Positions 1 through 34,300 of a DNA stretch of 64,000 nt are shown in pieces; position 1 is the stretch's first letter, and the number at the start of each line of letters is the position of its first letter. This DNA is from Botryllus schlosseri (taxonomy: Eukaryota), in assembly GCA_051294905.1 (NCBI GenBank), contig CM119372.1, forward strand, positions 27,902,001 through 27,966,000, written 5' to 3'. A model generated the notes under the pieces. The model made no database searches and was not told the DNA's origin. It saw only the letters and a list, made by a program, of their open reading frames with translations. The position numbers were made by a program, and so were the translations under genes.

Positions 1-1331
1 GAAGTCACGGATTCCAGTACTGCATGTAGGCTAAGACAGTGGTCAGACTCAGCCCGGGTTTCAACCGACAACCTATTGATTGGAAAGCCACTACACTATC
101 TTGTCAGTTGATTAAGGGCTGTGAATAGTCACAAAAAACTTTAAAATGTTCAATAACGATTGAAACCTCTACTGCAAATGCAACACCAGTCCAAGTTTAC
201 GCTCGTTTGTAACACCTAAACATGCAACCCTCTTTTCAGTGTCGCAACGATGCATCAAATAATTCAGGACAACATATTTAAAAGCAAGCAAAGTGGATCA
301 GTTTCCAACTGAACTAAGTTTGTTTTGTGAAAATTGGTTCATCGTTTCGGAGTGGGTATCTTCCTGATCAGTCAATTATGACAGTGTGTTTTCACAGAGA
401 GAGATTTTAGGACTTCCTGGTATTGTTAATCAGCCGAAAAGTGTTTTTACCGAAAGCATGTTTCCGGTTCCTAAGACATATTAAAAAAAATTTGTTGCAT
501 GACATTTACCGATAAGTAAACTGTCAGACTTGTACCAACTACGAACCTGGTTAGTTAACTGTCAACTAACTCCTTTTTCTGAATAGTTTTAGTTCCAGTT
601 CCAGTTGCGGATATTAAAATGTGAGTAGTACGAGTTCTGGTCTAGTAGTTGCGCAAATTAGTTGCCAAACAATTAGAAAACATGTGTCGCTTGGCGTGAA
701 TCATATCGGTGTTCTGTTGTGTGATGCTCTTGCAGCTGTTTCTAGCTCAGAGTAATCACCAATAACAGTGACGTAACCAGGGGTGGGTTTTAGGGGTCGA
801 TACCCTTCTCATTTCAAACTCGAAACTGATATTCATGTGGCGAGCAAATACGATAACGATAAAATAAACAAATATTGAGTTGCATCAGAATATAATCTGG
901 TTAGTTGTGATTAGTTAGTTAGTTGTGGATTTTTATAGGTAATCACTTCTAGTTCTAGCCGCGAGATTTGAAAATGGAGTAGTTCTAGTTCTGATTGTGC
1001 ATTTGAAAATCAGTGATACAGTGAGTCATAAATCACGCTGAATTGCAATCAGAAGAGCTACAACAGCTAGAGGCTCGATACTGAAAAAGGAATGATTCCC
1101 AGAGTGCAGCATCATATGAAACTTGTGAATCTACATAGGCTAACTTACATTGGTCATTATTCGGGATGAAGTTATCAAGTCAAGTCAGACTATGACCAAA
1201 TTTATATGCAACTGAACAGAATACGATTCCAGCACGAGCATATTTACTGCTGGTGATTTTCACTAAATTTTATGGAAATAGAGTATTCAAGTATTTATGG
1301 AGGATAGCTCTCAACAAAATTGAGAATTCAC

Positions 1332-1418
1332 CTTGTTTTTCAGTTCAAAATTCTCTGCTTCGTATTCTTCGGAAAGTCTGTTGTTCTCAAGTTGTAACTC
1401 GACCAGTCCTTTTGACAC
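1332..1418 (-). CDS. Kinesin-like/CCDC78 exon 11
   Basis: VSKGLVELQLENNRLSEEYEAENFELKNK (DUF4472-like). Confidence 0.88.
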
Positions 1419-4400
1419 CTGAAAAAACGTGAAAATGATACAAGACTGGCATTTTGCCATCAGGTAGGCATCGGAATGAGCTCGTCAATAAGCTACTTGG
1501 AACCCTAACTAGGAATGGCCAGACCAGTGCTTTTCAACCTGTGTGACGGTTCGCACTGGTGTGAATGAAAAAAATTGCAGTGCGAATGACGAAGGTGGTG
1601 CGAATAGTGCGAATGAAAAATCCGGAAGCCAGGTTTGGAAGTTGGTGTAGTTACAAACATACAGTGTATCAAGCCCATCTGAGCCAGCGACAGGCTGGAA
1701 AAATGACGTCAAATTGATTTTCTGCTTTCTTTCGCTAAACAATCAACATTTTCGTAATAACTGATTGATTACCGCGAGGCCCGGGGATAGTAGTAAATAC
1801 CAGCATTACAGACTCACATTTGCAAGTTAATGTAACGCAAGTTTTACCCCTTCAAGGGTTATTAAAGTATGGGCAGCATCGGTATAATTTTGGGTCGACA
1901 CGGTGCAAAAGCTATCTGTTTATATGTATGTAAAATTTGTTGAATTTATTGCAAAAAATTCTGCGATAGTTTTTACATATCCAAGGTACCAAAGGGTACT
2001 GTAGTTAATAAGCGAGACACGCAGAATTTATGGCTGGATCATGAGAATCAGCCGACCTTTGGTTTGAATTCATAAGATTTGTCCGAATGTTTTTTCTTGA
2101 AAACATGGACGAAGACCGTTGGGATGAACTAGTGTAGGGGTGTGCAACGAGTGAGTTCAGGCCTATGAGACTCATTCATTTCGAGACCAACCCCTTCTGC
2201 GTTTTGACTAACATACCGCTGATAAAATGCGGTGCCGCTGATAAAATACGTGGCCAAAAACGCCAGCGGCGACAAAACCTTGGCTAAAATTGACTGACGC
2301 TGGATGACCAAACCTTTCAATATAAAAATGCTCCGTTGTCGACACGGAATAGTCCCGTTCTTGCAATCTGAGTAGACAGTAGTACAAATGCCACACGCAT
2401 AGGAATTTACTTCACCCAAATTTGAAATCGCGTGCGTCAGACATATTTAAAAAAATTAATTCCTTTTCATAGGTGAGGCTCGGGTCACGAGATGCCACAA
2501 AAATTCAGATTTTGATGGTAGTCTAAAATGCTGCTTTAAGGTTATTAAACTGCTATGAATTTTCAAGTTAGATTGAGATAAAGAGCCGAACAAACAGTAT
2601 CCTGACTTTATTTGCTCTTACTCGCTAGACAAAAATTGGGAAATCGAAAACAAAAAACAGATCTCAAGTAAGAGCAACGTATCATAGAGTAGCGAGCTCT
2701 AATGTGCCTACTCTGCTTGATGGTATTGGACTTTATTTCCCCAGACATCAGGCACAAGCCTCAACACAAGCATGTGGATTTTTCACCCTTTCCACAAACT
2801 GGAGCTTCCGGGACCTTTGTGTCGTCTCTCAAAAACGATTTCTGGCAGTAAGCGTTTCTCACTCGCAGAAAATACGCTGTATTTTGGATAGGAGTGCAGA
2901 ATAGTTCGTAAGACCTGGCCATCCAAGCACTATGGTAACCGTAATAGTACAATATCCAGCAACTTGTTTGACTGAGAATCGTATTATTAGCGAAATAGTT
3001 GAAATCAAAACGAGGGAAAAGAGTTGCCTTTTTAATGAGACACTTCATGGCCTGAAAACTATAGTAGCCAATTTGCTGCACATCTGAACAGAATATTCTT
3101 ATGTAACTTCATCTTCTTTCTGTATAGCAATTTTCGGTTGGCTTGTGCGAATGAAATTTATTTTAAAAAAAAAGTGCGAATGAAGCTCAAAAAGGTTGAA
3201 AAGCACTGGGCACATTGTTGCCGTTAAATTTTACCGAACACATTTCTCGCTTTTAGATGATTAGCTTTCAGAGGTGGTGAGTGACTTCTACTTTTTCAGA
3301 CTGCTCAGACAGCCTTTGCAAAAGCTTTGTCTTTGTAATGAACAGAATAAAGTTACAAGCAAAATACTCATTTTTAGAGTAAAATTAGGCACTGATGCAG
3401 TGGGTGGGATGTCAAAAGCGTGTGAGGATTAATCTTATTACTGTGAAACATACCTAATCAGTTGAAATTGTTTTAAAAAACTTACTCAAACAAATGAAGT
3501 CCCCTTCGAGAATAAATAAGGTGCCCGATAACGATACATTGCATGCAATACTTTTCGATTGAGATCATAAGAGATACGGTATATACAGCAAAGCCATTCA
3601 CAGTGTGATATACCGATTCTCTGTGGGCCTATTCATTGCACAATCCTCTCCATCAAGTCACTTAAAGGGGCACTGCACTCTAAAAATGATGTGGTCTCAA
3701 ACTGAAGGGTAAAACGAAAAAAATATTTTGGTTGCAGTCGTTTGCTTCAGAACGCCACCGTAATGGAGCTGCAATGTATTGAAATTTCCACAAACAAATC
3801 ACGCTCCAGCAGTCACGCAGAGATCGCACTATGTATAGTTGTCAGCCGATGTCATGAAGAAAATATGTCGTACACGCCAAGGTGGTTAAGATACAGTGTT
3901 CAACGGAAGACGTTCAGTCAGGAGATTATGTCAAAATCGGGCCTAGTGTATTCTATATCTGTCGTGTACGACATATTTCCTTCATAACATCGGCTGACAA
4001 CTATATAAAGGTCGGTCTCTGCGTGACTGCTGGAGCGTGATGTGTTTGTGGAAATTTCAATACATTGCAGCTCCAACACGGTGGCGTTCTGAAGCAAACG
4101 GCTGCGGCCAAAATGTTTTTTTCGTTTTACCCTTCAATTTGAGACCACATCATTTTTAGAGTGCAGTGCCCCTTTAATGCAAAATTACTATTTTACATCA
4201 AGTGAAACATCTTGATTCTTTTTTGTGACAAATTACGTTCTCAGATCTAATTTGTTTCCTACGTGAGCATAGTACTTGCAATACGGTACCTAGAATTACC
4301 TTATGAAGCGATCCTCGAACAGACGGGGGAATGCTAACAGCACGGGTCCCCATGCCGTGAATATATCCCTCCTTACCGTCACCATTCACAAAAGGTTTTG

Positions 4401-7400
4401 CCTCCATTACAGAGCACATAGTGGACTGACTCGGACAGCTAGTTCTGCTAATAGTAGGCAAACTTTCGCCCTCCGAAAACATTTCCGTGACTATCCCCGG
4501 CATAGATCAACAGGCAACCTTGTATAGCGGCTGCGATCGAAAAGATACCGAGGATGACCAAAAATACGAGATTATATGACAGATTTCATTTCAAAAAAAA
4601 TTCGTGAAATCATAAGGATAATCAAAATTTTTCGAGAACCCTTCAATCGAAGACATCAATTGTCTCTGCTACGAACAAAACGATTTGCTCAATTAGAAGA
4701 TGCATGTGGATTTAACGGCGCCGAAACTTTAAGGACAGTCCTAACTATGTGATAGGTGAACGGTGAAATCATAACAGGGTATCATTCAAAAAATGTCTCG
4801 TTATTCATAGGGCCTTTGATTAGATAATTCATCCACTTCAACAGTCATCGTGAGTGGATATTTTTTATTGAAACGTGAGGTCAAATACAACAAATGCTAT
4901 AATGTGGGCGCCTTTAATAATTATGCTATGTGAATGATATTGCAGCATCTATCGGGGGATTAATTTGAAGAGTCGGGTACGGTATGTGATGAAGGAATTT
5001 TGTTGATTAAGGCTGGTGAATCCATTTTAGGATTCATTACCAACTGTTACATAATAACAACAAGCGTTTCCGACAATGGGCTCTTGGCCATTCCAACGAT
5101 AGTAAATGAGAATTGAGTAATTCTTCAATTGGCTTATAAAAAGTTTGTCCTTAGTTAGGTATGAAGGAGCTGTCACTGCAGCAGATATTATTATTAACAG
5201 AATACTCATATTCTAAATTCAAACAAGGAGTTTGAATCTGAATGTGGTACTTACCTGAGAAATATGACGATGGAGAATGAGATTTGAAACTAATGTATAC
5301 TAGATTCATTCATGTATATATACGAGTCATTACTTGATTTGTATTTCTACAAAAACCGAATGGTATATTGGTGTCTTTAAGCACTTTCAATTGCAGGACA
5401 AATTCAGACAATTTGGACAAATTCGAGTGCCGTACTCCGTATTTGTCCTGAAATTACAAATCTGCTTTTGGATTTCACAATTTATAGTGCCGACCTACTA
5501 CCGCAAAGAACATCCTAATTGTGGTCTTGTCTAGGATTTAGCCAATGATATGAAAATAAAAGATCTGGAGAAAGGATGGAGAGAGAGAAACAGAACTCGA
5601 ATCGGATTGGAAACCAAAATTTACCAGTCCAGATATATAAAAATGGAAAAACGTGCAGGCAGCATCCCTTGGGGCAGGCTTAATCGAACGCAAGATATGT
5701 TTGAGGCATAGCAAATAGTCTATCTACTTAACATGAGCACTGAGCAGTTAGCACTCAAGATACATCCCAATAGCACTACATAATGAAGTTGTTTCGGTTT
5801 CTTGCCAATATCAACTGGAATTAAAGAAGATTTAAAATTTTAGACACAGGCTGTGGAATCTATCAAGGTCTTATGTTTAGATATTATACCGTTATTTGAA
5901 CAGCTTCTTGGAGGTGCAGAACTTCAATATACGGAATATACTATTCAATTATACCGTTATGTACGTGTTGCTGTTTGCGAGTCTGTTTACTTGTCAATAT
6001 TATGTCACAACACTCAAAACAACAAACTTCTGTCTATATTTTGCATTTGGTTAACCACATTTTTTCACGTTTGTTCCTGGAGTAGCTGAGTGGAACATCT
6101 TGAGGTCGAATAAATTTGGCAATATCATATCGTTTGTCGTGATATACATATAGTGATTAAAACGCTAGATCGCAAACCTTTAATTTCTCCTCTTCGCTGG
6201 CAACTAATTTGGCTGATAAATCGGATTTGGATTTAGCCAAATCAGTGAGCTTTTCCTGGACTTGCTCCAATCTTTGGAATAAACGATCGTTTCTTTCTCG
6301 CAGTTGGGTCTGTAATATAGAAAAATTGATTGATTCTCCATCTGATGAAATAAGACGAATCAAATCCCGCACACAGCTTTACAAAGTTATTGCTTCCTTT
6401 GCATTTTCAGGGACAGAGAGACACATTAGAGACACATAGTTGGAACTTCACCATCTTTGAAGAAAATTTTCGTAACAATGGACCCAAACGCCTATATTTA
6501 TTGAGCAAATTTCAGTACTTTGACAGAAGTATGTAGTTTAAACGACGCTCTTTTGATGCCAAATGTACAATATTTGTGTGTGGTGTTTTGTGTGTCGCAA
6601 CCTAACCTAACTAGATCACTATTGCAGCAATATTTCCAAAAAAAGGGTTTTTTGAACAGCACCAAGCCGCCAGTGTCTTTTTTAAGAACTAAGCTCCTGT
6701 ATGTGCGTTTGAGACTAGACGATATATCTTAATGATTTTTTTCAAATCACATCCTAACTTTATCACAGTGTTCAACTCAGATGGGGAGTTAGATTTCAAA
6801 ATTCTGGAATTTGCGCAAGCTTAAGATTCCATTTCTGCGCAATCCAGCAATTCGAGAACAGATGTCTGTCCACTTGAAATCCAGATATATTTGCCGTTGG
6901 TTCAACATTCGATCTGTAGTTTGTCGGCAGATTCAACCAAATTGTACTCAAGAATTTCACTTCAAGAGTAGTTAAGTGTTTTGAAGAGTGATTCGAATTC
7001 GAATGGAGTATTCGGCTTCCAGTGAAGTCGAGGATTCGAGAATCACTCACTATGATGTCAAATATGTAGCCGTCCCTCTATTATGACTAATAAGAATGAT
7101 GCCAATTACACATTAAAGATACTTAGGTATTTTTCGAACCATACCAATTTCATTGCACGTTGAGACAATGCTGCGGTTTGATCACTACTGCACAGAAATA
7201 TCATTTCCACCAACTTCCAGAGCATTGTGGTACGTGTTTCGGATGCGGTGTTACTGCCAATCAAGGTTTCAAGGATTGTAATGTGGAAAAAAATTATAGA
7301 AATTATAAAATCATGAGTACAATTAATACGCAACTAGGATTCGATTAGGCCTACTCGAGTTATTTTACCCCGCGCTTTCCATACTGGTTGCTAACAATTA

Positions 7401-10400
7401 CCCCTGACGAGTGTCAGCCAAAAATATTTGGATTTATTTCAATGTGAATATGTTTTTCAATTGTATACTGAAGTCCTGGAAACTTTAAAAGTCTTATCAA
7501 AAACTTGCTTATTACATGTTTATGACACAGGCCCGCTTTAAATATTGTTATATTGGTATTAAAGTTCAGGTCATCCAGGCCATAATGAAACATTACAGTA
7601 ATTGATGGTGTCAGTCATAATCTCCTGCATTCCATGTTTCGGTAATCGATAACCGCTTAGTAACTCACATTATCAGTCGTAATCTTCAACAATTGATCTT
7701 GCAATTCCGTTCTGGACAGCATTCCAGCCCCCTTACCGAGATCAGCTCCACCGTGTTGAAGGGTGGCGTCGATTTTGGCACGGTATTGTGTGACCAGATC
7801 CTAGAAAGAGTAATCAGGGTTTCTACTCACGTCGAAGCAGAAATAATGCTGTAACTTTCTACACGATTACACGTCGGGCTTGAAGTAGCAATTTTCAATA
7901 CATGTCTAAATCAATTCAAGTGGAAGAAAAAATACTCAGTAAGTGGTTTCAGAAAGTAGATTTTATAGAATGGTCGCATATTTATTTATAACAGTTAATC
8001 GAAGTTACTTTCTGAATCGCAACATGCATCTTTGTGACTAATGCAAAATTATTAGTGACACCAAAAACACGTCGAATCTTTGATACAGGGGCTATTTTGC
8101 ACACATTACAACTACTTCACTAAAAAGAATGATGGAAACTTGTTTCAAAACGACTTCAAACTTTTCAAGAAGCAAAGGTAAAAAAGCTAGTAGCATTCAT
8201 TGCCTGTAGAATGATTTAATAGGAGTGGAAGTAGTCTAAAATCAAAGTCATGACAGTAATTTCTGTAAGTAAGCAAAACCTACTTGGTAGAAGAAATTCG
8301 CTACCGAAAACTCGTCTGAAAACAGTTTTAACGAGCAACACAAAAATTGTGTCATGGGATACAAAGAACAGGTTGCGGACCGGATCTGACCCCTTGCCTC
8401 ACTGAAACTGTGTCCGTTTCTTCAAACTGGTATTATACGAACCTGCGCCAGACTGTCGTTTAAGATGGGATAATTTCGGACTTCGGTAAGCAGCCCGCAT
8501 CCAGACAGTATCGCTGCCATCACGTCTGGGTTGTTGTTCTGCGGCGGCAGGCAGCATATCACCCTTGTCTTGCAGTTTCCACCTAAGATATCTTCACAGA
8601 GGCTTGTCAGTTTTGAATCCCTGGAAATCAGTGGTTAAGGCTTTAGTATTCATGGCGTTCCGAGAAGAGCCCGGATGACATTAGTGTCCGTAGATATTTT
8701 CACAAGCAGACATTTATTGACCAAACCACTGACCACGTCACCCGTACTATTGCTCCTAGCCAGAGATTCGCCGGTACTGTTGGAGTGCTTTATGACGACA
8801 ATAGGAGATCTCTCTTTCGTGACAATGTTGAAAAGATGTGACTAAACCTACTTTCAAAACCTACTCAATATCCAATTGAATAATTCACATTGAAATAAAC
8901 CCGACTATTTTTGGCTGACACCCGTCACCAACTAGTAGAGGATTCAAAAGAAGTATACCGATTTCTAAACCCAAATATTTTTGGGTATATTTCACTATTT
9001 CACCTATTAAAAGTAATCCACAAAACAGTAAGAAATTAAAAGCATTGAGCTAGGGGGAAAACTTTTCTGTGCCATTCTGTTTACAAGACGGACGCAATTG
9101 TACTGAAGTAAAAGCAACTATAATGCTAGCACGGCTTTATAAGAGTTTATTGTCGATTGGTAATGGATGGATCTACTTTGATTCAACATAATCTTGTGTT
9201 AAAACAAACGAAGTACTGTTTATTGTATCATAACCTAACGAAAGCGATTGCGACCTTGTGTCCGAATTACCGTGTTTTTTTTAAATGATATTTTTCCTTT
9301 TGTACCATTCCCAAGCATTTTGGCCTAATAAAGCAGTTGCCCGGTGTCCGGTTATCCGGTGTCTGAATTACGAAGAGTCGATTGTATTTGAACGATCCAC
9401 ATCATCCATACACTTATGAGGTCACAATGAATTATAATCACATACTGGATTCGAAATGGAATCACTGGTTCACTTAATTTTGCCAGGCCCTAACAATCAT
9501 CTAACGATCCACACACTGAGTCACGTACGTGTAATTAATGACGCGCTCCGGTTCTTGCTGTCTTGCCAAATCTGCGGTGAGCTGATTGAAGGCCACCACC
9601 GATTTCGATAACGTCGGGCCCTCCCGCAACCTGGTCCGGGACAAATCCTCTGCCAGCTTCTCCATGCCGGGCATTCGGACGACGGTGAACTTTGACCTGT
9701 TTGGCAACGGATTTTCGGTCGTCATCTGAGAACGACAAATAGACGTTTAGGTCAGAGGTTCCATGAATGAGCGATATTGGCCCCAGGGGAAAATTTCGAG
9801 AGACAGGGGGGGACGAAAATGTCAGAATGCCTAGTCAATATTCTCAATTAACAGTCTGGTCTCCTGACAAGCTCAATTTATAATCGATGGATGTCAATAG
9901 AAAACGGGTTATATCTGTGACTCAACCCAGCCATAGAAAAATCAAATTGATCAAATAGGGAAAATTTGCTCTCACCTTTGCAGCAACAGGTTGTTGAAGT
10001 GGATACAAAAAAATTAGTATTTCAGCATAAAAAAAACTGTTCAAGTAGAACTTGAAGAGCTTCTTGGAGGTACAGAACTTCGATATACAATTGAATAGAG
10101 TATATTCATATGGAAATGAACCCGAATATTTTTGGCTGACACTCGTCAGGAGTAATTCTCAGCAACTAGTAGAGATTTGAAAACAAACATTGTATATCAA
10201 CAATCGTATCACAAAATATGAGGTCACCAACATGAAATTTCGAATAAGAAAGATTTCAATATATTGTTGACACAGCATTAGCTGGTGTATTTTAATAAAA
10301 GTCGACTCCAAGGCACACAAATGACAGTGTGAACAGGCCCCTTCCAACGACGCGAAATCTGTCATCTCGATAATTTTTCGTACAAGCGGGATTATCCAAC

Positions 10401-13400
10401 AGATGCTTGCCAATGGCAGAATTCATAGCCCTAGATTGTTCCGTATCAAGCTTGAGCGGATGAGTCAAGGGTGAGCTTTTGACCGAGCGCGATGTGCTTG
10501 TTCTAATAAATCTAGGGACATGCTGACTTATACGTTCATGCAAATGCTTTGACGTTTTTCCACGTAGTCAAAATCACAGTCGCACCAATATTCGTACACT
10601 ACATTACTTTGTTGAAATGAAGGGAGGGAGCAGTTGTGTGTTCATAAAAATCATGTTGGTCATCAGCTCTCTTCTTCGTAATTAAATGCTGGTGACGTCA
10701 TATTTTGTGATACCGTTGTTGATATACGATGATCTTTCCAATTCACTACTAGTTGCAGACGATTACCCCTGACCAGTGTCAGCCGTAAATTTTCGGGTTC
10801 ATTTCAATATGAATATACTATTCAAAAGTAGAACTTGTACAGAGACAAAACTACTTGAGTCAGTGAAACAAGTAGATACAACCTACTTGAGTACTAAAGC
10901 AAACCTGAAGTACTTCGAGACTGATGACCTTCTGCTTTTAGCAGGGTAATAATGATATGTTGAGATTATTTTGGAACCTCCGGTTTAATGGCCACAATCT
11001 GCATTGTGACAAAGCTTAAAACCTAGAAGAGCTATTTTTGTAGCTTATTATTATCGGCACCATTGAGGTAAGTGCATTTTGTAATAGTTTTAAAGTAGGC
11101 CAACAATTATCACGACTCACCATAGTCAAGTCCATTTGAAAAACGACAGTGCTGAAATTTTTGACGTGCCCGAAATCGGCGACGGTCACATTTCTCGACT
11201 GCCACGCTTGCCAGAATGCTGCAAAATATCGGTAAGTTCTAGAATCATTTCCAGCTCGGGCGTGGCACAATCGAGCATAAATTGTGTATTCCTTTTTTCA
11301 AGCAGGGTACTGGACTTATGCGCCAATTGTGAATACGAGAACTATCATTTTGTCACTTTTTTCCCACTGAAGTACTCGTGAAACCTATATTCGGCATATC
11401 ACCGCATCCAAAACATATTATATTAGAGATTAGATTAGAGATATTAGAGAATGTAGCATTTCTTAGTACTAGTGACCATGGCCAAGACTAGGCATTATCA
11501 ATTACGGTTACAAATACAATTTCCTCAATTCCTCTTAATGTGGATGACGTCATAATGAACGTTACGCAAAAACGCGACCCGAAATCAAATCAGGGATGTG
11601 CTGCATTTTGTTTAGCCCTATTTCCGACCAATTTTGAAAATATATTCTAGCTACCTGACAAGGCTTCTGCCGGCGTACGGCATCTTTCACAAGAAAGGTT
11701 CTTGATGTAAGTGCCTTCATCTGCAGAATGCTCCAACTCCATCGAGAATTTACCCCGACCTGAAATGCAGATTGCAGAATAGGAAAGTTTTCGGTGTGGG
11801 ACAAATGCAAAACATTTCACTGCGATAACAGAGTCATTCGAGTGAAGCAACGCATTGTAGGAGAATCTGTACCTAGTATAAACACAGGTCGATTTATGAA
11901 CCAAGACGAGCAAAGGCTTTCTAACATTAGTTGTGAATTGGGCAAAATACCAATTTCAGGAGAATTTGACTGGCTCAACCAGTCAGTACTAGGGTTGGGA
12001 TATGAACTCCATCTGGCATAAAACATCAGTCTAATCCAGTGGTTCCCAACGTGGGCGATATCGCCCCCCAGTAGGCGATTTGGCGGTCTAGGTGGGCGAA
12101 AATGACGAAGGGGGCGATAGGGGGCGAAAATGGACAAAGGGGGCGACAGGGAACGAAAATAGGGAAGGGGGCGATAGGGGGGCGATGACGCGTCAAAACG
12201 GCTGACCCTTATTTTTTCGGTCAACCCACACGGAAATTTAGTTGCAAAAGCGTCCAATTCTACATCGAGCCGAAAAGTTGACCTTTTTTTTTCTTAGTCA
12301 ACCCGCCGGTGATTACAGTTTGTATGCGCATTTTTCGGTACACAAAATTTGGGGGGCGATGATCGGTGTTGAGCTTGAAAAGGGGGCGATTGGTCGAAAA
12401 AGGTTGGGAACCACTGGTCTAATCAATGATGATCTAATCCGCTGCAGCAACCCTAAATCCGAAAGACTCTCTCTCTTTCTCTCTGCTATTTGTTCTATAG
12501 AGAGAGGGAGAGAGATTTTATTGCTTCGTCAACCGGCACATTAGTAATAACCAGATATAGTATGTAAAGTAACCTATGTACCCAAAAACAAAAACATATA
12601 CAGAATAATATTTGAGTGTAAATAACTGTATAGTATAGGCGTCACCGTTTATTTTACTAGAATCTGTTCCTGGAAAATCATAGGTGGCTATGAATGATTT
12701 CATATTTTGCATAAAACATTCTATCGACCTAACTTATATTGGGACCAGGTGTGTAGTACAATAGCTGACATGATAGCTTGGGTATCCTTTGCTTGGGTAA
12801 AAGTAAGGCCACGTAATTACTGACTACAGCAGAAAGAGACATGACTCTTTCCACCAAACCTCTTACTTACCGGAAACCATTCCTCTGCTGGACATGAGAT
12901 CTGTTATGACCTCGTTGTAAATTTCATACTGATACAACAACAGTCTGTAGACATCACCGTCCACACGTCCTGACAATTGTGGATCATCGATAGAATCTGA
13001 AACGTTATTACCATAGTATAATACTGCCGGGTGTATGCATACTTGCACAAAACACACTGTAGGCTACTTTGGTTATTTATCCTACTGCAGCTGCTATAGC
13101 AATTTTCATGGACTCATGACACAATACGTGCAACAATAATAAGATAATATGTAGCCTATATAATATAAGATAATTGGGAACTTGAAATAAATACAAACTA
13201 GCAAAAGAATAATGAAAGTCAGTTTGTTTTTGTCTGTAGATACGAAGAAACCGCAAGGTTATCAATTCAGCACCATCATTTTCTTCTACATGCTATCCTG
13301 GAATGTTGACATAGAGTTATCAGATGTCACTTGCAGATAGTTATGAGTCTGGATCCATTCTGCTCTAAAAAAGCTGGATTGCTAGCTAATTAGATTCCAA

Positions 13401-16400
13401 AATCGTGACTCTACACTCTACAGGCCTACATATAAAGTAGATACATAGGCATACCTGGATTAGCTTTTGAGTAAGATCTTGTATTTAGTATTCAGTATAA
13501 CAGAGCTTTGGACCCAGCCTCATAACCAGTATAGTGTTCTAATTTCTGTCATGGAATATGAGTGTTTCGACATAATAGAATGTAACATTTTAGCATGTGG
13601 CATTTGAGAATGTGAATCAAGGCTAAGGTTAGGACTCCAGTTCACGCTTGGGTCAAGGTTATTTTTAGCTCTGTACAGTGTACAAAACCATGATATTATT
13701 TATGTTCACCTGCTCAACTGGTGTTTTTGCTGCATGCTCAACTGGTGCTTTATGCTGCATGCTAAAATCATGGTCAGCTATTCCATGTGACTTACCACGG
13801 AGTCCCATCGCTTTATTCTGAAGCTCTGTCATCGTATAATTGATGGCTTGCGGCACCAATCCAGGCTGAGAGTTTGCTCCTTGCTCGCCGGCCATTGTGT
13901 ACGATTTGCCAGACCCTGGATAACACAGGTACCGGTATCAAAAGGTAGATGAATCTTGAGAGTATCGCATTGGAATCAACCAAGTGCCTGTCAAATTAGT
14001 GATGTAAATGCGTACTAACAAGATGCTTTCTTCAGTTTTTAGGCATGGAAACACTGGATTCATATGTCATTGATATGTCACCATGCACCGCAAATAATTG
14101 TACTACAATGACACATGCTACATGTTTCGAATACACATCAGGGCTGTTCAGTTCAAAGATAAATTATTTTGTCAAATCTAATAGCTACTGTAGCCTACTT
14201 GATAAAATTCTAAAAAAGCTGCACATGCACACCAAATGAGCCTGTCGTTTTTTTTCTAATTTTTTGTAATAAATTCAAAATTTTTAAACTGCAATAGCTT
14301 CACTTCTACTGGTTTGAATTGCGTTAAAATTGGAGTACGGTACGTTTTTTCAGCCAACCCACCGTAACAATTTTATGAAATAACCACAAAAATTTGAAAA
14401 GAAGTTACCCTAGTGTGCTATGCAGTGTGTACTGCATGCAAGGCGCCAGTATCTTCAAGTACGGCACCCACAACTAGAATATATATTATTCCAGTTACAA
14501 AAAAAAAAATACTAATTCAATATGAATTGGACATGGATATAATAGCCGACAAAAATAGGTTGAGATTTGACTCAGGTCATCATTAATTAGGACAACACCC
14601 AATGACAAATGGAAGTAGGATGAACAGTAGGCTAGAAGGTTATTCGCAACCGCATTTCATCGAATAAGAAATATACATACCACTCTCGCCATAAACAATA
14701 ATACAAGTGTTGAAGCCAGCAAGAAACAAATCAACGAGTGGCTGAACGGCTTTGTTGAATACATCCTGATTAGTGGCGTCGGCTTTGTACAGCAGATGGA
14801 AACTGAAAAAATCAAATATAACAAAAAAATAGAAATAAAGTACATTTTGAAGAATAGGTTGACATATCACCAGATAATTTCTACAACATTCAAATTGCAG
14901 CCATGGAGGAGTGGGGAAAATTGAGAAGGATCAAGGAACATGTAATTCCACACAAGTGATCTTGTATCAAACATAATGACAGTCAAATCCGTCGAAAGTT
15001 CCAATTATTTTTCATAAAAGTTGCAGTAAAAAGCAGCATTTATTTTTCCAAAAAGTTGCACCAAAAAGTTGCATTTATAGACAAGTTCCTTGTAATTATT
15101 AGGGTTTAAGATCAGTGGCGTATCCAGGGAGGGGTTTTAGGGGGTCGGAACCCCCCCCCTTTTCAAAATCCTAAAAATTGATGTAAAATATAGCCTCTAA
15201 TATTTTCTAATTTATTAGTTTAACATATTCGTTTTTACGTATGAGAAGGCGAATATCCGTGTTAATGTTATTTAAGGGGACTAAAACCCCTACCAAATCT
15301 TGGAATCATGCGCCGGATTAGACGAAAGGATAAAATAGGTCATTATATTTCGCTAATTCCATACGAATTCTGCGCTTGTTCAGCAACATTTCAGCGGTAG
15401 TTGCTGACGTTCTCAACTTTCTTCCCTCGATTTCTCTCTCGCCTTGCTAAAACGAGACACGCATTTTCAAGAAATCTAATCTAATTGGCCGATGCGATGC
15501 GTAATTGCAAAGACGAAGTTGTCGGCAATCAACATCGCCCGCGAATTCGCTGCGCCTGCTCCCCTCGAAATCCTAATTACGAATTGCACGGCGTGTTGAT
15601 TGATCAGCGAGACACAGACACGGCGGCACCAGTACGACAATGCTATTCTCAAATCCACATTGTCTTCGCGATTATTGGCGAGAAATTGTTTACGATTGAC
15701 ATTCACAATTCGAAATACAAGCCTAGCAATCCACGTTAACGATTGTTAGGTGGCTTGCTGGCGTCCAAATACAGGCCTGTGTTGTCGCTGAACGGGAGAA
15801 TTGAGTAGGCCTAGTAGTAAAGTTAACCTAATTATATCGGCTGACAAGTTTCTCTGTCGATCAAGTTATTATCCCAGTGTGTACTCTGTATTAATTGACT
15901 GACTTGCGTATTTGCAATTAAAGTCTAATTACCTTCGCGCGTACTACACGCTCAGCCGTAAGGCTAGTAAAGCCATCGAAAAGCACACATTCGTGTACGA
16001 CGTACACTGTTCACACCACACCTCTCTGTGGCGATTGCGATCGCCCTCGTTTATGCTACCGCCTTATTCCGCGCTTGTTCGTCCGCTGCGATACTACCGA
16101 CCGTCAAAACCCAACAAAATCGCGCTTCTCTGGCCGGAACTAGGCGCTTGGAGACGGGCGGCGTTTGCTGGCTTGTGACTAAATGTGAGCAATTACGAAT
16201 TTCTTTCAATCATACCGTAAAAGAAACGCGATTTTCAGGCAATGTCTGTATCGTATTCGTACATCTCCCACTCACCGCAAATCTCTTTTTATTATTAAAC
16301 TATACAATATCGTAAATATTCGCCATGGCGCTGAGACGAGTAATTGTAATGATGACGTCATAATAGCCGATTTCGTAACGCAAACCCCCCCCCTTTTTTC

Positions 16401-19400
16401 GCGCTCTGGATACGCGCCTGTTTAAGATACTAGAATCGATCCATATCCAAGGCACTGTGGCAAAACTCAGTGTTTGTTACTTCAACAAAATCAATAGCCT
16501 GAAAAAATTGACTCAGCGAAAATATAATTTTCGGTGGTCCACCCTGAATGTACGTTAAATCAGAAAGGACCTCAAACTTAAACGACAGTGAAATAATAAA
16601 GCGATCTCTCTACATAATAGTGCCAAATATTTCCAGTGAAAAGTTAGTTGCATGAAAATTCCGAATAAGTTGCAAAAAGTTGCATGAAAAAATGGAGAAA
16701 AGTTGCAAAAAACTGCAGTACAACATTCCTCCAAACAGCTTAAAACACCATGCCGTACTACATAACTTCTGAGTAGTTAGGAAGCTGCCGAAAGTTGCAA
16801 AAACTCGCCCTAATAATGGCGTTCGTCACACAATAGGTGAGTAGTTTTGTAGCCCTAACCCAGGTCTCACAAATTTCTGACTTAATCAGAGATCAGAGAG
16901 CAGATTTACGTTATTTCTGAGTGAAACCATCAAAGCCAAAGGCAATATTTACAGATAGCGGTAGACACAATGATTCGAGTACCGTACTCGAATCTGAATC
17001 GAGTATTAATTCGCGTAGAGTATAGTGAGGGATGATTTTTGGAGTACAGAAATAAGCCGCTCCTTGCCAACAAAAGTTAACTCAGCAATGAGATCTATAG
17101 CTTTGATACTACATTTTAATGATAAAGGGTGTAAAACTTGATTGGTAATATCGCATTGCATGAAACATGAAATACAAAGCTTCTTACATTAGTGGAAATG
17201 ACATATCAGTGAAGTCTTGATCAACCCACAGCACTGTCACGAACGGCAATGAAATAGGTATGGTAAAAAAGGCACCAAATAATCTTAAATGCTATACAGA
17301 GCTGATATTATACAGGATGAAGCCTGATACTCGATTCGTAATCGGATCACTGAAATACTCGATATTTCCCAGCCCTTCTAAGAGAATATTAATTTAAAAT
17401 GGTGCATATTAGGTAGGCTTACCATATTTTGGAAATCTAAAAAGAGGACACTTTTTCAGAAATTTGAGACTTGCAAAACCGGGGAAGAATTCTCAAAAAC
17501 CGCTGAATTTTTCCCACTTTGTGATCGGTTGACTAAAAAAAAAAAAAAAAAAAGTCATCTTTCTGCCCAGAGCTAAATTCACCGTTTTTAACTCCGAAAT
17601 ACCCGCCGGAGCGTCACTTCTGTGCTTATTTACGGCATATCATTCGCAATTTGCTCTAAATCTGGCCTAAATTTTCAAAAAAGAGGACAACATCTCAAAA
17701 AAGAGGACAGAAGGGCATCCTCCGAGGACACTTTCAACAAAGTCAAAAAAGAGGACAAATCCCCTTAAAAGAGGACGTATGGTAACCCTAATATTAGGCA
17801 ATAACTCACACATAGGTATGACTGGCAGTACAAGCCACTTAAAGTTTTGAAAAATTGCTAGGTGAGAGGTCCCACCGAGATTTGAAGTCGGATCAGAGGA
17901 TTCAGAGAGAACGGTTCGAATCTCTGAGCAGACTATAATCTATATTTTCCAAATCAGTGTGAGAATTAGCTTATAAGATAACCATTGTGGCACAAAAATC
18001 GGCACTTCTTTGTTATTCCCCACACATCGAAAAAATGATCCCCATGACACCAATAAATGTTTCCCATGGACATAAACAGAAAAATTTATATACGTCAAAA
18101 TGAATTGTTTTTCGCGTTGGGGTGGGATAGATGGATATTAGGGATGGGGATATTAGGATGGGTTAGGATATCTTAAGATTAGGGTTGGGGATATTAGGGT
18201 CGGGAGATATTAGGGATGGGGAGGGGGATGTTAGGGTCAAGGTTGGGGTTAGGATATCCTAGGATTAGGGTTGGGGATATTAGGAATGGGGGAGGAGATA
18301 TTAGGGTTATGATATCCTAAGATAAGGGTTGGGGATATTAGGGTCAAGGATGGGGTTAGGATATCTTAAGATTAGGGTTGGGGGTGAAGATTACAATATT
18401 CCAAACCCTAATCTTGGGATACCCTGACCCCAAATTTAACCCTAATCTCGGCATATCCTACCGCAAACTTTACCTCAACCTACCCTAGCACCCTCACCCG
18501 CAACCCTAATCTTAGGATATCCTAACCCACCCTAATAACCCCCTCCGCAACCCTAATCTTAGGATATGCCAACCTTGACCCTAACCCACCCTAATACCAT
18601 ACACCCTTCCCCGACCCCAATATTCCCTTCCCACGACCCTAATATCTCCCACCCCGACCCTAATATTGCCTTCCCCGACCCTAATATCTCCCACCCGACC
18701 ATAATATTCCCCTAGCCCTAATCCCGGCGCGAAAAACAATTCATTTTGACGTTTATAACTTTTCACATGTTCATGGGAATCATTGATTGGTTTCATGGTG
18801 ATCACTTCTGGATGTGTAGGGAATAACGAAGAAGTGGCCAAAAATCAGCCAGATTAGAAACAGTGGATGTTTTCTGCAATAACTGAAAGGTTTTTTGCAT
18901 AGAATAATTATTAAACGGAAAATTATGTGTGGTGTTGCCACCCATTTCACTCTGGAAAATGAGCATTAGTTACTAAATAACCGCCAAAACCGTACCACGA
19001 TTTCAGAAGAGTATAAGCCAGGGGTCGCCAACTCAAAACGGGTCGCGGGCCACTTTTCAAATTTTGTAGCGGCCGCGGGCCGCATAAATTCTATATCGAT
19101 ATAAAGGGGGCAACCACGTTTTAAAACGCTGTTCTACCTAACATAGGCAATGGGTATAGTGACCACAAAAAAGTAATATTTTATTAAAGGAATAAAAATA
19201 CAACAAAGTACCACTGTCATCAGTTTCATTTTATTTTAAACTGCGAGCTGTGCACGATACCTAGAAACGCTTTTTGGGACTAGCGAGATACGTAACTAGC
19301 TGAAAGACCATCCCCACTTGAAGCTTAATCTTGTGGGAAAGCCCTATGCCAGTGGTTCTCAAACCTTTTTTGATACGCCCCCCTATATGATACTGAAAAA

Positions 19401-20087
19401 TGTCGCGCCCCCTTATCGTCATATCACAAAATGCATCCATAGTTTCATGGTATGTGAGGTTATGAATGTTGACGAGAGAATTCGATAATATAAATTCCGG
19501 ATTATACACAGAGCACTAGCTATAACTATGAATTAGAGGAAAATCGCGCCAAGCGCGAAAATTTTTTTAGTTGAACGCAGCACCACGGCCCTTCAGATGC
19601 TTTCACGACCCCATATGGGGGACGTACCCTCAGTTTTAGAACCACTTCCCTAAGCAGTTTTCTGGCGTCTCGGTATTGGAAATGTTTGGGCCATTGCACG
19701 TCAATTTCAGAATTTCAAAATGTTTTCTTAGCTTTCTTCCGAAATCTAAAATCATGTCGCGGGCCGCAAAATATGACCTGGCATGCGGCCCGCAGGACAC
19801 GTGTTGGTGACCCCTGGTATAAGCCATATATGACTAAAAAGATGTTTATGATACCGTAATGTGCAATCAACAGTCCAGTCAAAGCACCATTAAATCACAC
19901 AAAACGGTGCATAAAATAACGATAGAACTGATACTGAATGTTACGAATGAAAACAGTGCCAGTATACTCACTTATGCGATACGCCACCTTGCTTCGCGTG
20001 TACTCTAGTATTGTCAGTTATTAGCAAGCTTGTCTGCCCCTCCCCGGCCCTGGGTGGTCTGATTTTCCCCACAGAATCGATATTCAT
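1332..20087 (-). CDS. CCDC78: Kinesin-motor-like / CCDC78 (DUF4472)-like protein, 3'-partial, 11 exons, 471 aa in window. join(20087-19972,14802-14681,13915-13796,12996-12871,11759-11655,11218-11121,9725-9529,8620-8443,7800-7669,6309-6178,1418-1332)
   Basis: 1413 nt in one frame, all GT-AG. Kinesin-fold motifs: GKIRP; TNQDVFNKAVQPLVDLFLAGFNTCIIVYGESGSGKSYTM; EIYNEVITDL; GTYIKNLS; INYTDSKLTSLCEDILGGNCKT. These are followed by the coiled coil SEEEKLKVSKGLVELQLENNRLSEEYEAENFELKNK, which resembles the N-terminal DUF4472 region of CCDC78 (recalled similarity, not searched). Confidence 0.85.
1525..3208 (+). mobile_element. Non-autonomous hAT-like element (family B, copy 1)
   Basis: TIRs CAGTGCTTTTCAACCT; homologous inverted copy at 41489-49124; TSD not clear here. 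Confidence 0.85.
3666..4173. mobile_element. Foldback MITE, Kolobok-like
   Basis: About 210-bp near-perfect TIRs starting AGGGGCACTGCACTC; flanked by TTAA on both sides. Confidence 0.85.
6178..6309 (-). CDS. Kinesin-like/CCDC78 exon 10
   Basis: Coiled coil TQLRERNDRL...LVASEEEKLK. Confidence 0.88.
7669..7800 (-). CDS. Kinesin-like/CCDC78 exon 9
   Basis: DLVTQYRAKI neck-coil-like segment; ttctag acceptor and gtgagt donor. Confidence 0.82.
8443..8620 (-). CDS. Kinesin-like/CCDC78 exon 8
   Basis: DSKLTSLCEDILGGNCKTRVICCL...VRNYPILN. Confidence 0.9.
9529..9725 (-). CDS. Kinesin-like/CCDC78 exon 7
   Basis: SKFTVVRMPGMEK...RLREGPTLSKS...VINY (switch II, L11, alpha4 position). Confidence 0.88.
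10054..10825 (-). mobile_element. Penelope-like retroelement fragment: GIY-YIG endonuclease remnant with 3' pseudo-LTR and an inverted pseudo-LTR copy
   Basis: Minus strand ~10625-10265, frameshifted: SNVVYEYWCDCDFDYV(G)KTSKHLHERISQHVP...SAIGKHLLDNPAC...LESTFIK. The repeat at 10085-10230 is inverted at 10690-10825. Confidence 0.85.
10120..10153 (-). ncRNA. Degenerate minimal hammerhead motif (G12>A) downstream of the GIY-YIG remnant
   Basis: actc CTGACGA gtgtcagcc AAAA atat TC gggt. Confidence 0.55.
11121..11218 (-). CDS. Kinesin-like/CCDC78 exon 6
   Basis: WQSRNVTVADFGHVKNFSTVVFQMDL (switch I position). Confidence 0.82.
11655..11759 (-). CDS. Kinesin-like/CCDC78 exon 5
   Basis: ELEHSADEGTYIKNLS. 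Confidence 0.85.
12037..12416. mobile_element. hAT-like MITE
   Basis: TIR CAGTGGTTCCCAAC; TSD GTCTAATC. Confidence 0.9.
12871..12996 (-). CDS. Kinesin-like/CCDC78 exon 4
   Basis: YEIYNEVITDLM. Confidence 0.88.
13796..13915 (-). CDS. Kinesin-like/CCDC78 exon 3
   Basis: GSGKSYTMAG...PGLVPQAI (P-loop). Confidence 0.9.
14681..14802 (-). CDS. Kinesin-like/CCDC78 exon 2
   Basis: NQDVF...GFNTCIIVYGES. Confidence 0.9.
15113..16420 (+). mobile_element. Non-autonomous hAT-like element (family C, copy 1)
   Basis: TIR CAG..GCGTATCCAG; TSD TTTAAGAT; highly similar inverted copy at 40385-49341. Confidence 0.9.
17414..17790. mobile_element. hAT-like MITE
   Basis: TIR TAGG(G/C)TTACCATA; TSD ATATTAGG; related copy at 27884-28134 (TSD TGGTATGG). 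Confidence 0.88.
17867..17908 (-). pseudogene. 3' half of a tRNA-Gln(CTG)-like sequence
   Basis: Minus strand CTCTGAATCC-tct-GATCCGACTTCAAATCTCGGTGGGACCT matches the anticodon arm to 3' end of eukaryotic tRNA-Gln; the 5' half is absent. Confidence 0.7.
18001..18839. mobile_element. Foldback MITE with internal inverted TTAGGG-like minisatellite arms
   Basis: About 120-bp TIRs GGC(C)ACTTCTT.GTTATTCCC; flanking direct repeat (C)AAAAATC; G-rich arm 18120-18390, C-rich arm 18400-18725. Confidence 0.85.
19019..19816. mobile_element. hAT-like MITE containing a nested MITE (19350-19647)
   Basis: Outer TIR CAGGGGTC.CCAAC with TSD GTATAAGC; inner TIR CAGTGGTTCT with TSD CCCTA(T/A)GC. Confidence 0.88.
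19972..20087 (-). CDS. Kinesin-like/CCDC78 exon 1 (MNIDSVGKIRPPRAGEGQ...)
   Basis: Kinesin beta1 'IRP' motif; gtgagt donor. Confidence 0.8.
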
Positions 20088-20734
20088 CACAGCAAGTTGT
20101 TATTATGCTTTATGCGTATTTCAAATTTGCCGTGCTGCCGCGAGCGTGCTACCGTGTGGACCAGACAACTAAATTTTCACTTTTAGATATGAAATAAGTA
20201 AAATATTTATGTTCAATACTTCAAACAATACATTATCTCTGGCAAAATTAAAGAAAATATTGATGAAAGCTTTCCTTCGTTCATCTCCCAGCAACAATAA
20301 AGCACCGTTGACAAAATAAACCTAATCCATAGCGAGTTCATGGAAGCGTGTCAACATAATATTGGAACACCATAGACGGCATAGACTTAGTTTTAAATAT
20401 GGGGCCCATACATATCTCATTAGATGGAAGAGACATATAGCCATACGCTTTTATTCCGCAATGATTGCAGTGAATTTAAGATACATTTGGAAAAGATACC
20501 ATCATTTAGAATTCTAAAGTCGGAATCTAACCACAGCTTATTCGATTCAAATCAAAAATTCCTCTCGATTCGAATTTTTCAGCTATTTTATTGATCAAAA
20601 TTTACAATAGAATACAATGTTAGTCAATCGAATCGGAATTCAAAGCATTTTACAGGGTGGAAAGCATTAAACTGAATAAACGAAATAACAAACTAACCGT
20701 GGGTCCTAAATGAACTAAAGTTACAATACGGAAT

Positions 20735-31323: not shown

Positions 31324-34300
31324 CTGAATGAATGGAAAGACCATATGTCAATGGTTTTCCAGAGTACTGAGCGATTACAAGCAGAGGTGGGTGGTCAGAA
31401 ACGAAGTACACTCAATTACGGACACCGGACCAGACAACCACTTTATTCGGTCAAAATGCTCGGGAGTGGAACAAAAGTTAAAATTGCATGTAACAAAATC
31501 TGTTGATTCGGACAATTCCCCGCTGAATTCGGACATCGGTTTGCGATTCTAATCGTTAGGGTATGACACAATCAACTTTGTTCGTTAACACAAGATGCAA
31601 TTGCATTGATTTAGGTTTAAAAGACATTCCTACTTTGTTCAACTTAACACAAGATGCAATTGCATTGATTTATGATTAAACAACGACATTCCTACTTTGT
31701 TTAATTTAACACAAGATGCAATTGCATTGATTTATGTCTAAACAATCGACAATGAATTCATGCAAGGCCTTGCCAGCTTCACAGTCACTTTTAGGTCCTT
31801 ACAATTGCGTCCATCTTGCAGAACAGAATTGTACCACAAAACGTGTAGCATTAAAGTGAAATTGCTCATTGAAGTAAATGAAGAGAAGAGTAAGACGTTT
31901 CCTTGACAGTTCGGTAGTTTGTTGCGTTGTTGGGATCAAAGAGTATGCGATTAGTGTCAATTACTGCAGTATAGCTGCAATCCAGTTACTACATAACAGT
32001 GCTGTACCTCAACACGTTGTCTTGTCTGCCGTTTCTCCACATAATTTGGCCAAAGTGAGCAGTACCACAGTGTCCAAAGAGTTGACTATAGTTACTTTAT
32101 CGGAGTATGTTTTGCCTGCATGCACTACTTTACTAACTCAAATGCTCATGTCATAGAATACTTCCACTTCTACTTAGCAACTTTCAGACAGAACTAGGCC
32201 TCAAGTACTTGCTTACTCGGACATCGCTAATTCTACCTGCACTCAAACAGAAATTTACCACAGAACTTCTGCTTCTACTTGAGAACCGACGATGACTATT
32301 TTGACCACGTTTCTGGTTACAAGTAGGCGATAAGAATCGCAATTGATATCACTAGCAGCCCTGGTAATAAGGAAATAACCTAGGTTTTCAAAGTAGTATG
32401 CATTGCTACCCAAGTAGAGGTAGAAATAACCGCATTTACCTGGCTTTTATGAATCGAGATGGCCCACGCCAGCTTCAAAGGAATCTGCTTTCGGGCGGCG
32501 ACACAATCCTGCGAAATTTTCAGCGACCATTTCTCGTGCGTAATGGTTCTCTCAATACCGGACAGAAATCGGACTATGGGCAGGCCCAGATTTTGAGGTT
32601 GGGATAACGATTCGCCTGTAAATTGAGAAAACAAAGTGAACAATAAGACCAGGCACCAATAAACGGAGATGGAAAAAAGTACTTTGAAGTCTTAACGATA
32701 CTCGAATAAGATAACTGCCAATCAAACAGGCACAAGCAGGATACTCTATAATAATAATAATAATATTCATATACATGCTTTTAGCCATTGATCAGAGGTG
32801 GCTACTTTTGAAATTGCAAGATCTCCGTGGCTAACGCAAAGTGACTAATGATATTGCAACTAGATGCAAACTTCGAAAAGACATATCCAGTTATCCGAGC
32901 CCAGCGCCCCCTGAGCGTTTCCGCTCCCTTCAAAATTCAGATCGGCCCTTGGGCTGGCGCTGGAGCCCCGGTTAGGAAACACTGATCTACAGTCCGCTAG
33001 AGAATTCATTTCCTCAGTTTTTGAAACTAAGTTACTCTTGAGTTTTATAAAATGGAAGGTCGCTTCGGATACAATTTCACAGTTTTATGGATGAAATCAG
33101 CATATCACTAGCGAAAAAGTCCAAGTCTATTTTTGAACGGGCACATATGCTACAATCTCAAAACTTATCACCGAGAGGCAGAGAATCTTTCGCCGACCGT
33201 CACATACAAGTACAACAATAATATATAAAGACAAAAAAACGAATTCGGATATGGCATTGACTGTGTGTTGTCCGAGACGTTGCACATAACATATCGTGCT
33301 CCATCTCTCGCCTTACCATGGAAATTAATCTAATTGTGCTCAAGTCAAATATCACCAGAATAATACCTTCAAAACTACATTACCAACCAACACATTACTT
33401 ACCAAGCAATTGAAATTTCGGTATTCTCATGGAGGGATTCAGGCTGTTTGTAAATCCTGTTATCACCCCTCTTGCCCCATTCACCAAACCGGCAGACACA
33501 TCAAGATTTTTGGTCAACATCACCTACAAAAAGTGCATTGCGTCACACAGGAATGTAACAGAGTTAAGAGTGAACTAACAAAATATAGAGGAAATTTCAA
33601 GACCATGTTCCCAGTACGTAGACATCGGTTTCAACGTAACAAGCTGAATAATCCAGTAAACTAATCAATACAGCGCACGATTTTGTTTGGATATGTGCTA
33701 AACGCAGGCACATTACCTGTGCCCCAAGCTTGAGTGTTAACTTCCTGGTGTCTGGCAAAGCTTGATCTAATACCGCGGAATACGACGACGAGTTATCTTC
33801 GCAGTGATAAGTGCAAGAAGCAGCAGAGAGCTCTTCCAAATGTGACTGAAAATGAATGGATTCTTGATGGAACACATGCGAATTATATCTAAAATTTTAC
33901 AAATGACTGCGATTAATGAAATATCTTATTGCTCAAAATAAATGATGGTTAAAATAAACTTTTTACCACAAGAGGACGGATACTTCTAGGCATCAGATTC
34001 CAAAACACAATTCTATAAGATCAGGAAAAAGTCAAACGCATTCTGTACAATTTTGCAGCTATATTCAGTCCCAATCAGGTGGTCAGTATAAAGTACTTCT
34101 ACTTTTCCAGACAACTCAGTCAGGTTTGGCCTACTTTAGTGGTTTGTAGGCTACTTCCACTGTTACACAAAACAGTTTTTAGACCAGAATTCTTACATCT
34201 TGGACTTTGAATTTTTCAAGATTGAAGTAGTCTTGTAATATATCAACATTTATCACTTTCAAGAGTGAAACTTTCGAAGAGCTTCTTTGAGGTAGCCTAC

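Follow-up and report, generated by a model that had tools for sequence, protein, structure and literature searches.

The 64,000-nucleotide stretch of the Botryllus schlosseri genome analysed here (assembly GCA_051294905.1, contig CM119372.1, positions 27,902,001 to 27,966,000; hereafter the window) carries on its minus strand a gene that, judged by sequence comparison, is the single-copy orthologue of vertebrate CCDC78. Its product has a kinesin-like head in front of the CCDC78 coiled-coil tail, and this head is probably no longer a working motor. The explanation we favour, with a probability of roughly 0.7, is that the protein is a CCDC78 orthologue whose head would bind microtubules without stepping along them, at the ciliary tip or at deuterosomes, a site assigned by orthology.

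The combination of a kinesin head with a CCDC78 tail is already known: it is old, widespread and on record. RefSeq names headed proteins CCDC78 or CCDC78-like in species from corals to sharks, and two papers note the architecture for the Tetrahymena protein I7LVY1 (PMC10522465, PMC12796433). The initial annotation of the window had set its novelty too high. Only the pseudo-motor reading and the mosaic loss of the head in vertebrates may be new. In the literature on CCDC78 and kinesins, on DUF4472 and on I7LVY1, of which our coverage is incomplete, no report of motif loss or of a headed vertebrate CCDC78 was found.

Gene structure and transcripts

The eleven exons within the window lie between positions 20087 and 1332 of the minus strand (Table 1). 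They total 1413 nucleotides, or 471 amino acids in a single frame, and every intron is bounded by GT..AG. The initial annotation had described one spliced frame leading from a kinesin fold (exons 1-8) through a neck coil into a coiled coil. This frame was recovered with the same 11 exons and 471 amino acids and with identical coordinates. The strand, not given in that annotation, is minus, and the stop-to-stop frames of the minus strand contain all the peptides quoted there.

The frame runs past position 1332. The closest relative, protein P0001, was spliced-aligned to the window together with the preceding 20 kb of the contig (G000:C2), and GT-AG sites that keep the frame were chosen. The resulting model of the full gene has 21 exons and encodes 998 amino acids with no stop and no frameshift. 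Since exon 12 begins 112 bases before the first base of the window, the window boundary divides the gene halfway through DUF4472; the ten further exons lie on the same contig at window-relative positions -112 to -9952.

Contigs assembled from public sequencing runs were aligned to window positions 1200-20150. One 4499-nucleotide contig of run X1 (depth 44) has all ten in-window introns spliced out at the predicted sites, and the same ten joints are present in shorter contigs of run X4, which comes from another study. The skipped ends read CT..AC on the plus strand, that is, GT..AG on the minus strand. Both runs had been labelled RNA by guess alone, and we read them as cDNA because their contigs lack all ten introns. 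A single spliced mRNA contains both head and tail. The junctions across exons 8-11, named earlier as the place to look for evidence of a single gene, are among these ten, and the proposal that head and tail belong to one gene is confirmed by their presence in the same transcript contig. The raw RNA runs X13 and X17, of which about 6 and 13 in 100 of the run were sampled, have zero depth on the exon-bearing bins and cover intronic repeats only; they are silent on expression.

Domains and predicted fold

The protein is laid out as a kinesin-fold head (residues 1-354, exons 1-8, ending at the exon 8/9 boundary), a neck coil, a DUF4472 coiled coil and a long coiled-coil tail. When single exon frames were scanned with Pfam, Kinesin (PF00225) was found in three of eight (34.7, 20.7 and 27.7 bits, of which only 34.7 exceeds the cut-off of 29.3), and DUF4472 (PF14739) in the exon-11 frame with 45.5 bits against a cut-off of 26.6. 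Three of the eight frames matched no Pfam family, and the exon-10 frame had sub-threshold coiled-coil matches only. Over its full length, relative P0001 scores 155.7 bits with Kinesin (profile positions 32-310 of 327) and 101.5 bits with DUF4472 (1-107 of 107); for DUF4472 the range among the relatives is about 101-110 bits, again over the whole profile. The N-terminal kinesin fold and the C-terminal DUF4472 postulated for the gene are thus seen both on exon frames and on P0001. In the whole 495.5-Mb assembly PF14739 has two matches, in exon 11 (profile 7-37) and exon 12 (34-97) of this gene only, and hence the CCDC78 gene is taken to be single-copy.

Among proteins of solved structure, the best relative of the head by sequence is the CENP-E motor (E 3.6e-26), followed by KIF14, OSM-3 and KIF4. 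As many as 147 kinesin sequences in the PDB match the head at E <= 1e-5, and the search points to no clear affinity with any one kinesin family. KIF7 (PDB 6mlq, 4a14) is a mid-ranking match with E about 1e-18, which shows no specific relationship.

The AlphaFold model of a tunicate relative (P0009, 547 amino acids; 34-row alignment A1) has a predicted local distance difference test score of 81.9 and a motor-like alpha/beta core. A low-confidence linker (366-381) is followed by a single long helix from 377 to the end, within which the regions corresponding to exons 9 and 10 are predicted to form a continuous helix. In a Foldseek search of the PDB the core matches kinesin motors with target-normalised template modelling scores of 0.82-0.89 and E down to 5e-28.

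Nucleotide-binding and microtubule-binding motifs

The head of the window gene keeps the P-loop GxxxxGK[ST] as GESGSGKS, split across exons 2 and 3. The switch I position reads ...GHVKNFSTVVF and lacks SSRSH. At switch II the reading is RMPGME, where the glycine and glutamate of DxxGxE are kept and the aspartate is replaced by arginine. In the alignment with CENP-E, GESGSGKS stands opposite GQTASGKT, KNFST opposite SSRSH and KMPGME opposite DLAGSE.

These motifs were surveyed in the family at large. An exhaustive search gave 16051 matches at E <= 0.001, 68 of them at E <= 1e-30; the best 150 representatives were aligned to the family profile and sorted by a local DUF4472 profile. Head and DUF4472 occur together in 61 of the 150: none of these has SSRSH, one has DLAGSE and 33 have GxxxxGK[ST]. 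Heads without DUF4472 number 39, with SSRSH in 36, DLAGSE in 36 and GxxxxGK[ST] in 38, and the three that lack SSRSH are short fragments resembling members of the CCDC78 family. The remaining proteins, 39 with DUF4472 and no head and 11 with neither, offer no motifs to score.

At the place of switch I the family has a conserved motif of its own, with the consensus TDFGPA...AT. The position of the switch II aspartate is occupied in the 61 proteins by aspartate (35), glutamate (17), arginine (2), lysine (2) or other residues (5). In a family alignment of 34 sequences, conservation reaches at least 90% for Ser-Gly-Lys in the P-loop and for Pro-Gly-x-Glu-Lys-Leu in switch II. The main microtubule-binding face of kinesins is formed by loop 11 with helix alpha4 and by helix alpha5, and both stretches (LREGPTLSKS... 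and INY.DSKLT.LL.D.LGGNCKT, respectively) are well kept in the family.

The heads of a caecilian, the axolotl and the alligator (P0215, P0218, P0220) have lost the Gly-Lys-Ser/Thr of the P-loop (e.g. GETDSRKS) as well as switch I, and retain helix alpha5 almost unchanged. Motor decay seems to have gone one stage further in these proteins, although the head itself is still present.

Orthology and closest relatives

A search with the exon-7 frame gave six proteins of 908-1005 amino acids at E <= 0.001 among 68 candidates. All six have both PF00225 and PF14739, and four are named, from Styela clava, Ciona intestinalis, Clavelina and Phallusia. Over the head, the window model and its closest relative, P0001, agree at 89% of residues. 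Against Styela clava the model is 83.9% identical over the head and 65.6% over the tail. Head identities of 84-89% suggest that the DNA comes from an ascidian near Styela. In the comparison with Ciona the values are 64.2% for the head and 45.8% for the tail. By this measure the head is under purifying selection and at least as conserved as the tail.

The ascidian proteins that RefSeq calls CCDC78 or CCDC78-like (Styela clava P0002, 1002 amino acids; Ciona intestinalis P0003, 979 amino acids; those of Clavelina and Phallusia) have the same order of head, neck, DUF4472 and coil. They share with the window gene a length of about 980-1000 amino acids, the replacement of switch I and an arginine or lysine at the switch II aspartate. 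We see no substantive difference between them and the window gene, which is the same gene in a further ascidian species.

The tail is 36% identical to the bowfin protein CCD78 over 79% of the tail query (E 2.2e-63). In a maximum likelihood tree of tails only, built from 34 rows selected from the named matches, tunicates form a clade with support 100 and vertebrates one with support 99, both falling with amphioxus into a group at 89. The branching follows the species tree. The identification as CCDC78, proposed in the initial annotation, is upheld by the bowfin match and by this tree. In human, mouse and Xenopus the CCDC78 tail is orthologous to that of the window gene, but there is no head. 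The headless proteins of Xenopus, bowfin and a marsupial score 113-122 bits with DUF4472.

Distribution of the head and its losses in vertebrates

The distribution was derived from names attached to clusters, and Pfam domains were checked on 19 proteins. The headed form is present in deuterostomes (amphioxus, a hemichordate, sea urchin, starfish, crinoid), protostomes (bivalves, gastropods, a chiton, annelids, a flatworm) and cnidarians (corals, anemones, a jellyfish). Outside animals it was found in the choanoflagellate Salpingoeca kvevrii and the glaucophyte Cyanophora. The survey of animals suggested with the first description of the gene finds the headed form from corals to vertebrates, and beyond. 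Judging from this distribution, the headed form is ancestral.

It had been supposed that the headed form might be ancestral and that the head was lost in vertebrates. The former part stands, given the range from amphioxus to a glaucophyte. The latter does not hold for vertebrates as a whole, as sharks, rays, lungfish, caecilians, axolotl and alligator keep both PF00225 and PF14739. The headed proteins include those of many sharks and rays (e.g. Chiloscyllium, 916 amino acids, Kinesin 191 bits), of the lungfish Protopterus (942, 196 bits), of three caecilians, of the axolotl (947, 160 bits) and of the alligator (864, 123 bits). The models of coelacanth and Pleurodeles both begin inside the head and are therefore considered partial. 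No Kinesin match was found in the CCDC78 models of sturgeons, paddlefish, bowfin, teleosts, eleven frog entries, tuatara, a bird and a marsupial. The turtle models also lack one, and that of Trachemys keeps a short remnant of the end of the head. In the non-model species the headless state is a property of gene models, and the set of sequences does not include lamprey, hagfish or chimaera.

The headless proteins start at positions aligned to tunicate residues about 375-386, at the beginning of the neck coil encoded by exon 9. Headed and headless forms are interleaved within the vertebrate clade of the tail tree, where the state of the head changes at least four times. This argues for repeated losses in one orthologous gene, not for two paralogues.

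An older Ciona model, F6Z7A4 (P0007, 550 amino acids), contains the tail only, as against the 979 amino acids of P0003, and its start roughly coincides with that of vertebrate proteins lacking the head. Either the prediction is truncated, or the model hints at a naturally occurring headless isoform with an internal start.

Proposed role of the head

Published localisations concern a ciliate and vertebrates. According to PMC10522465, I7LVY1 of Tetrahymena thermophila is a predicted kinesin with a CCDC78 domain, is at least fourfold lower in cilia without the cap protein FAP256/CEP104, and is thought likely to bind the central-pair microtubules in the cap. Like the window gene, it combines, by its published description, a kinesin motor domain with a CCDC78 domain, and it is located at the ciliary tip; the organism is very distant. 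PMC12796433 localises the Ccdc78 proteins of Xenopus and human to the outermost distal tip of motile cilia, where they act with Ccdc33, and states that the kinesin motor domain of the Tetrahymena relative is 'absent from vertebrate Ccdc78'. Deuterosomes and apical foci are further reported sites of vertebrate Ccdc78 (PMC12796433; PMC10522465, which cites Klos Dehring 2013), and the human protein has also been assigned to the sarcoplasmic reticulum (PMC11394131).

In the explanation favoured here, the altered switch I and switch II motifs, given the roles of SSRSH and DLAGSE in hydrolysis, suggest that the head binds microtubules and does not step. It would be unable to run the canonical kinesin ATPase cycle and would act as a static, possibly nucleotide-bound, microtubule-binding module, and dimerisation through the coiled coil would give it two heads. 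Orthology with I7LVY1 and vertebrate Ccdc78 suggests that the protein resides at the distal tip of motile cilia, at the deuterosomes of multiciliated cells, or at both, where it would attach a cap or tip complex to the ends of microtubules. Lineages without the head would reach the ciliary tip via partners.

Among kinesins, KIF26A/B, KIF7 and Drosophila Costal2 are immotile or catalytically impaired, with altered nucleotide motifs, and serve as microtubule-binding or scaffold modules; KIF7 acts at the cilium tip. They differ from CCDC78 in belonging to the kinesin-11 and kinesin-4 families and in having other tails. Membership of a further family was considered. The Kinesin-17 family named by Wickstead, Gull and Richards in 2010 is linked to cilia and has no known function. 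The 21 members listed in supplementary table S3 score 330-540 bits with Pfam, and some 'divergent' kinesins were excluded from the grouping (Wickstead et al. 2010). Compared by these scores alone, the listed members are canonical motors unlike the CCDC78 head, and the lead is unsupported.

Several points weigh against a non-stepping head at the tip. The conservation of the P-loop and of switch II would fit retained nucleotide binding or sensing, and even an unconventional ATPase. The arginine or lysine at switch II in tunicates is a derived state, as most members of the family have aspartate or glutamate there. The fold was predicted on P0009, which is 60-66% identical to the other tunicate proteins of alignment A1, and not on the protein of the window itself. 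Exons 12-21 were placed by protein similarity and GT-AG sites alone. The localisation is drawn from a ciliate and from headless vertebrate proteins. In the literature searched, no biochemistry was found for any headed member of the family. Finally, the roles of SSRSH (switch I) and DLAGSE (switch II) in hydrolysis are taken over from textbook knowledge.

One alternative is that the head is an active, unconventional plus-end motor that carries the CCDC78 tail to the ciliary tip, with other residues replacing switch I. An N-terminal motor followed by a neck coil is indeed the arrangement of plus-end-directed kinesins, 34 family members show at least 90% conservation of the P-loop lysine and of the switch II glycine and glutamate, the head is under purifying selection, and TDFGPA...AT is conserved at the switch I place. 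On the other hand, SSRSH is missing from all 61 proteins with head and DUF4472, the P-loop pattern is present in only 33 of them, and in tunicates the switch II aspartate has become arginine or lysine. The caecilian, axolotl and alligator proteins have lost the Gly-Lys-Ser/Thr and kept helix alpha5, which suggests that the conserved job is not nucleotide turnover. We consider an active motor unlikely.

Two other explanations have lower probability. A mainly cytoplasmic role, in centriole amplification at deuterosomes or in muscle, with the head tethering those structures to microtubules and no function at the tip, appears improbable. To our knowledge every named headed taxon encountered builds cilia or flagella at some stage, which counts against it. 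The relevant papers do place vertebrate Ccdc78 at deuterosomes and apical foci as well (PMC12796433, PMC10522465) and human CCDC78 at the sarcoplasmic reticulum (PMC11394131), but the sole headed member with localisation data is ciliary (PMC10522465). The join itself could be an artefact, a degenerate kinesin and a neighbouring CCDC78 gene merged by the gene model or in a chimeric contig. Older models do split the gene (Ciona F6Z7A4 has DUF4472 only), a 455-amino acid cluster member from Lytechinus is named 'KIF19', and assembled contigs can in principle be chimeric. However, a single open frame crosses all junctions, ten identical joints occur in two runs from two studies, the order head-neck-DUF4472 recurs in 61 of the best 150 representatives from a glaucophyte to the alligator, and exons 9 and 10 encode a continuous helix in the model of a relative. 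We regard an artefact as extremely improbable.

Taken together, the observations can be read more broadly, with CCDC78 as an ancient kinesin-derived, non-walking tip anchor that shows a series of stages of decay; we offer this reading as a whole tentatively, at somewhat less than even odds. The family would predate animals, the canonical switch I having been lost before animals, choanoflagellates and glaucophytes diverged, and since then the head, without walking, would have held the ciliary tip complex to microtubule ends. Switch I would have been lost in all members, the switch II aspartate in tunicates, amphioxus and corals, the P-loop in caecilians, axolotl and alligator, and the whole head at least four times in vertebrates (ray-finned fish, frogs, mammals and most sauropsids). 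On this view, what has been published about the missing motor domain of vertebrate Ccdc78 would be true of the model species only, and headed vertebrates such as a shark or the axolotl would allow a direct test of what the head contributes at the cilium tip.

For genome annotation, the locus provides a clean 21-exon, 998-amino acid CCDC78 orthologue with a kinesin-like head, the gene itself being an ordinary member of its family. The loss of a canonical hydrolysis motif throughout a family under selection points to a pseudo-motor microtubule anchor. Such an anchor would bear on how the CCDC78/CCDC33 tip complex grips axonemal ends. The repeated loss and retention of the head corrects a statement of the recent literature and provides comparisons of headed and headless close relatives, e.g. 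axolotl and Xenopus.

Exons and other features of the window

Table 1. Exons of the CCDC78 orthologue within the window, in the order of translation
Exon	Window position	Strand	Content	Evidence
1	19972..20087	-	start codon at 20087; N-terminal strand of head, 'KIRPP' motif (kinesin N4 RxRP position)	joint 14802/19972 in X1 and X4 contigs
2	14681..14802	-	head; ends within P-loop, GESG/SGKS split by intron 2	Pfam Kinesin 34.7 bits; joint 13915/14681 in contigs
3	13796..13915	-	head; second half of P-loop (SGKSYT)	Pfam Kinesin 20.7 bits
4	12871..12996	-	head, 'YEIYNE' strand	spliced alignment and contig joints
5	11655..11759	-	head	spliced alignment and contig joints
6	11121..11218	-	head; switch I position 11139-11180 reads ADFGHVKNFSTVVF, without SSRSH	translation and CENP-E alignment
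7	9529..9725	-	head; switch II position 9654-9680 reads VRMPGMEKL, followed by well-kept loop 11 / helix alpha4 (LREGPTLSKS...)	
8	8443..8620	-	end of head: helix alpha5 'DSKLTSL..LGGNCKT', alpha6, neck linker; ends at residue 354	Pfam Kinesin 27.7 bits
9	7669..7800	-	low-confidence linker and start of neck coiled coil; headless vertebrate CCDC78 begins at positions aligned here (P0001 residues about 375-386)	
10	6178..6309	-	coiled coil, ends at first DUF4472 residues (SEEEKLK)	joints 6309/7669 and 1418/6178 in contigs
11	1332..1418	-	DUF4472 profile positions 7-37	Pfam PF14739 45.5 bits

Several introns of the gene contain repeats. A long inverted repeat lies in intron 10 (window 3662-4177), with arms 3662-3879 and 3960-4177 of 218 nucleotides each, 93% complementary and separated by a spacer of 80 nucleotides. 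It is probably a repeated, transcribed hairpin or an element resembling miniature inverted-repeat transposable elements, as its contig depth is about 700-970 in two runs. Two regions in introns 6 and 1 (10048-11311 and 17000-18263) have a summed contig depth of 1300-6400 in X1 and X4, with many loose ends; nowhere else do raw RNA reads reach a sizeable depth. Both regions resemble dispersed repeats or pieces of transposons; a 91-amino acid minus-strand frame at 10295-10567 has no Pfam match. Intron 1 also contains a cluster of tandem repeats (18133-18711) with periods of 15, 21, 34, 43 and 49 nucleotides and a unit resembling GGGTTAGG / CCCTAATA.

Pfam was run on 53 of the 61 long open frames of the window (90 amino acids or more); four of the other eight are exon-bearing frames that were scanned separately. 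As 52 of the scanned frames have no Pfam match, any genes in the other 44 kb should have short exons. The minus-strand frame at 33600-33896, of 99 amino acids, matches the Pif1 helicase 2B domain below threshold (19.8 bits; cut-off 23.9), and may be a remnant of a Helitron or Pif1-like element.

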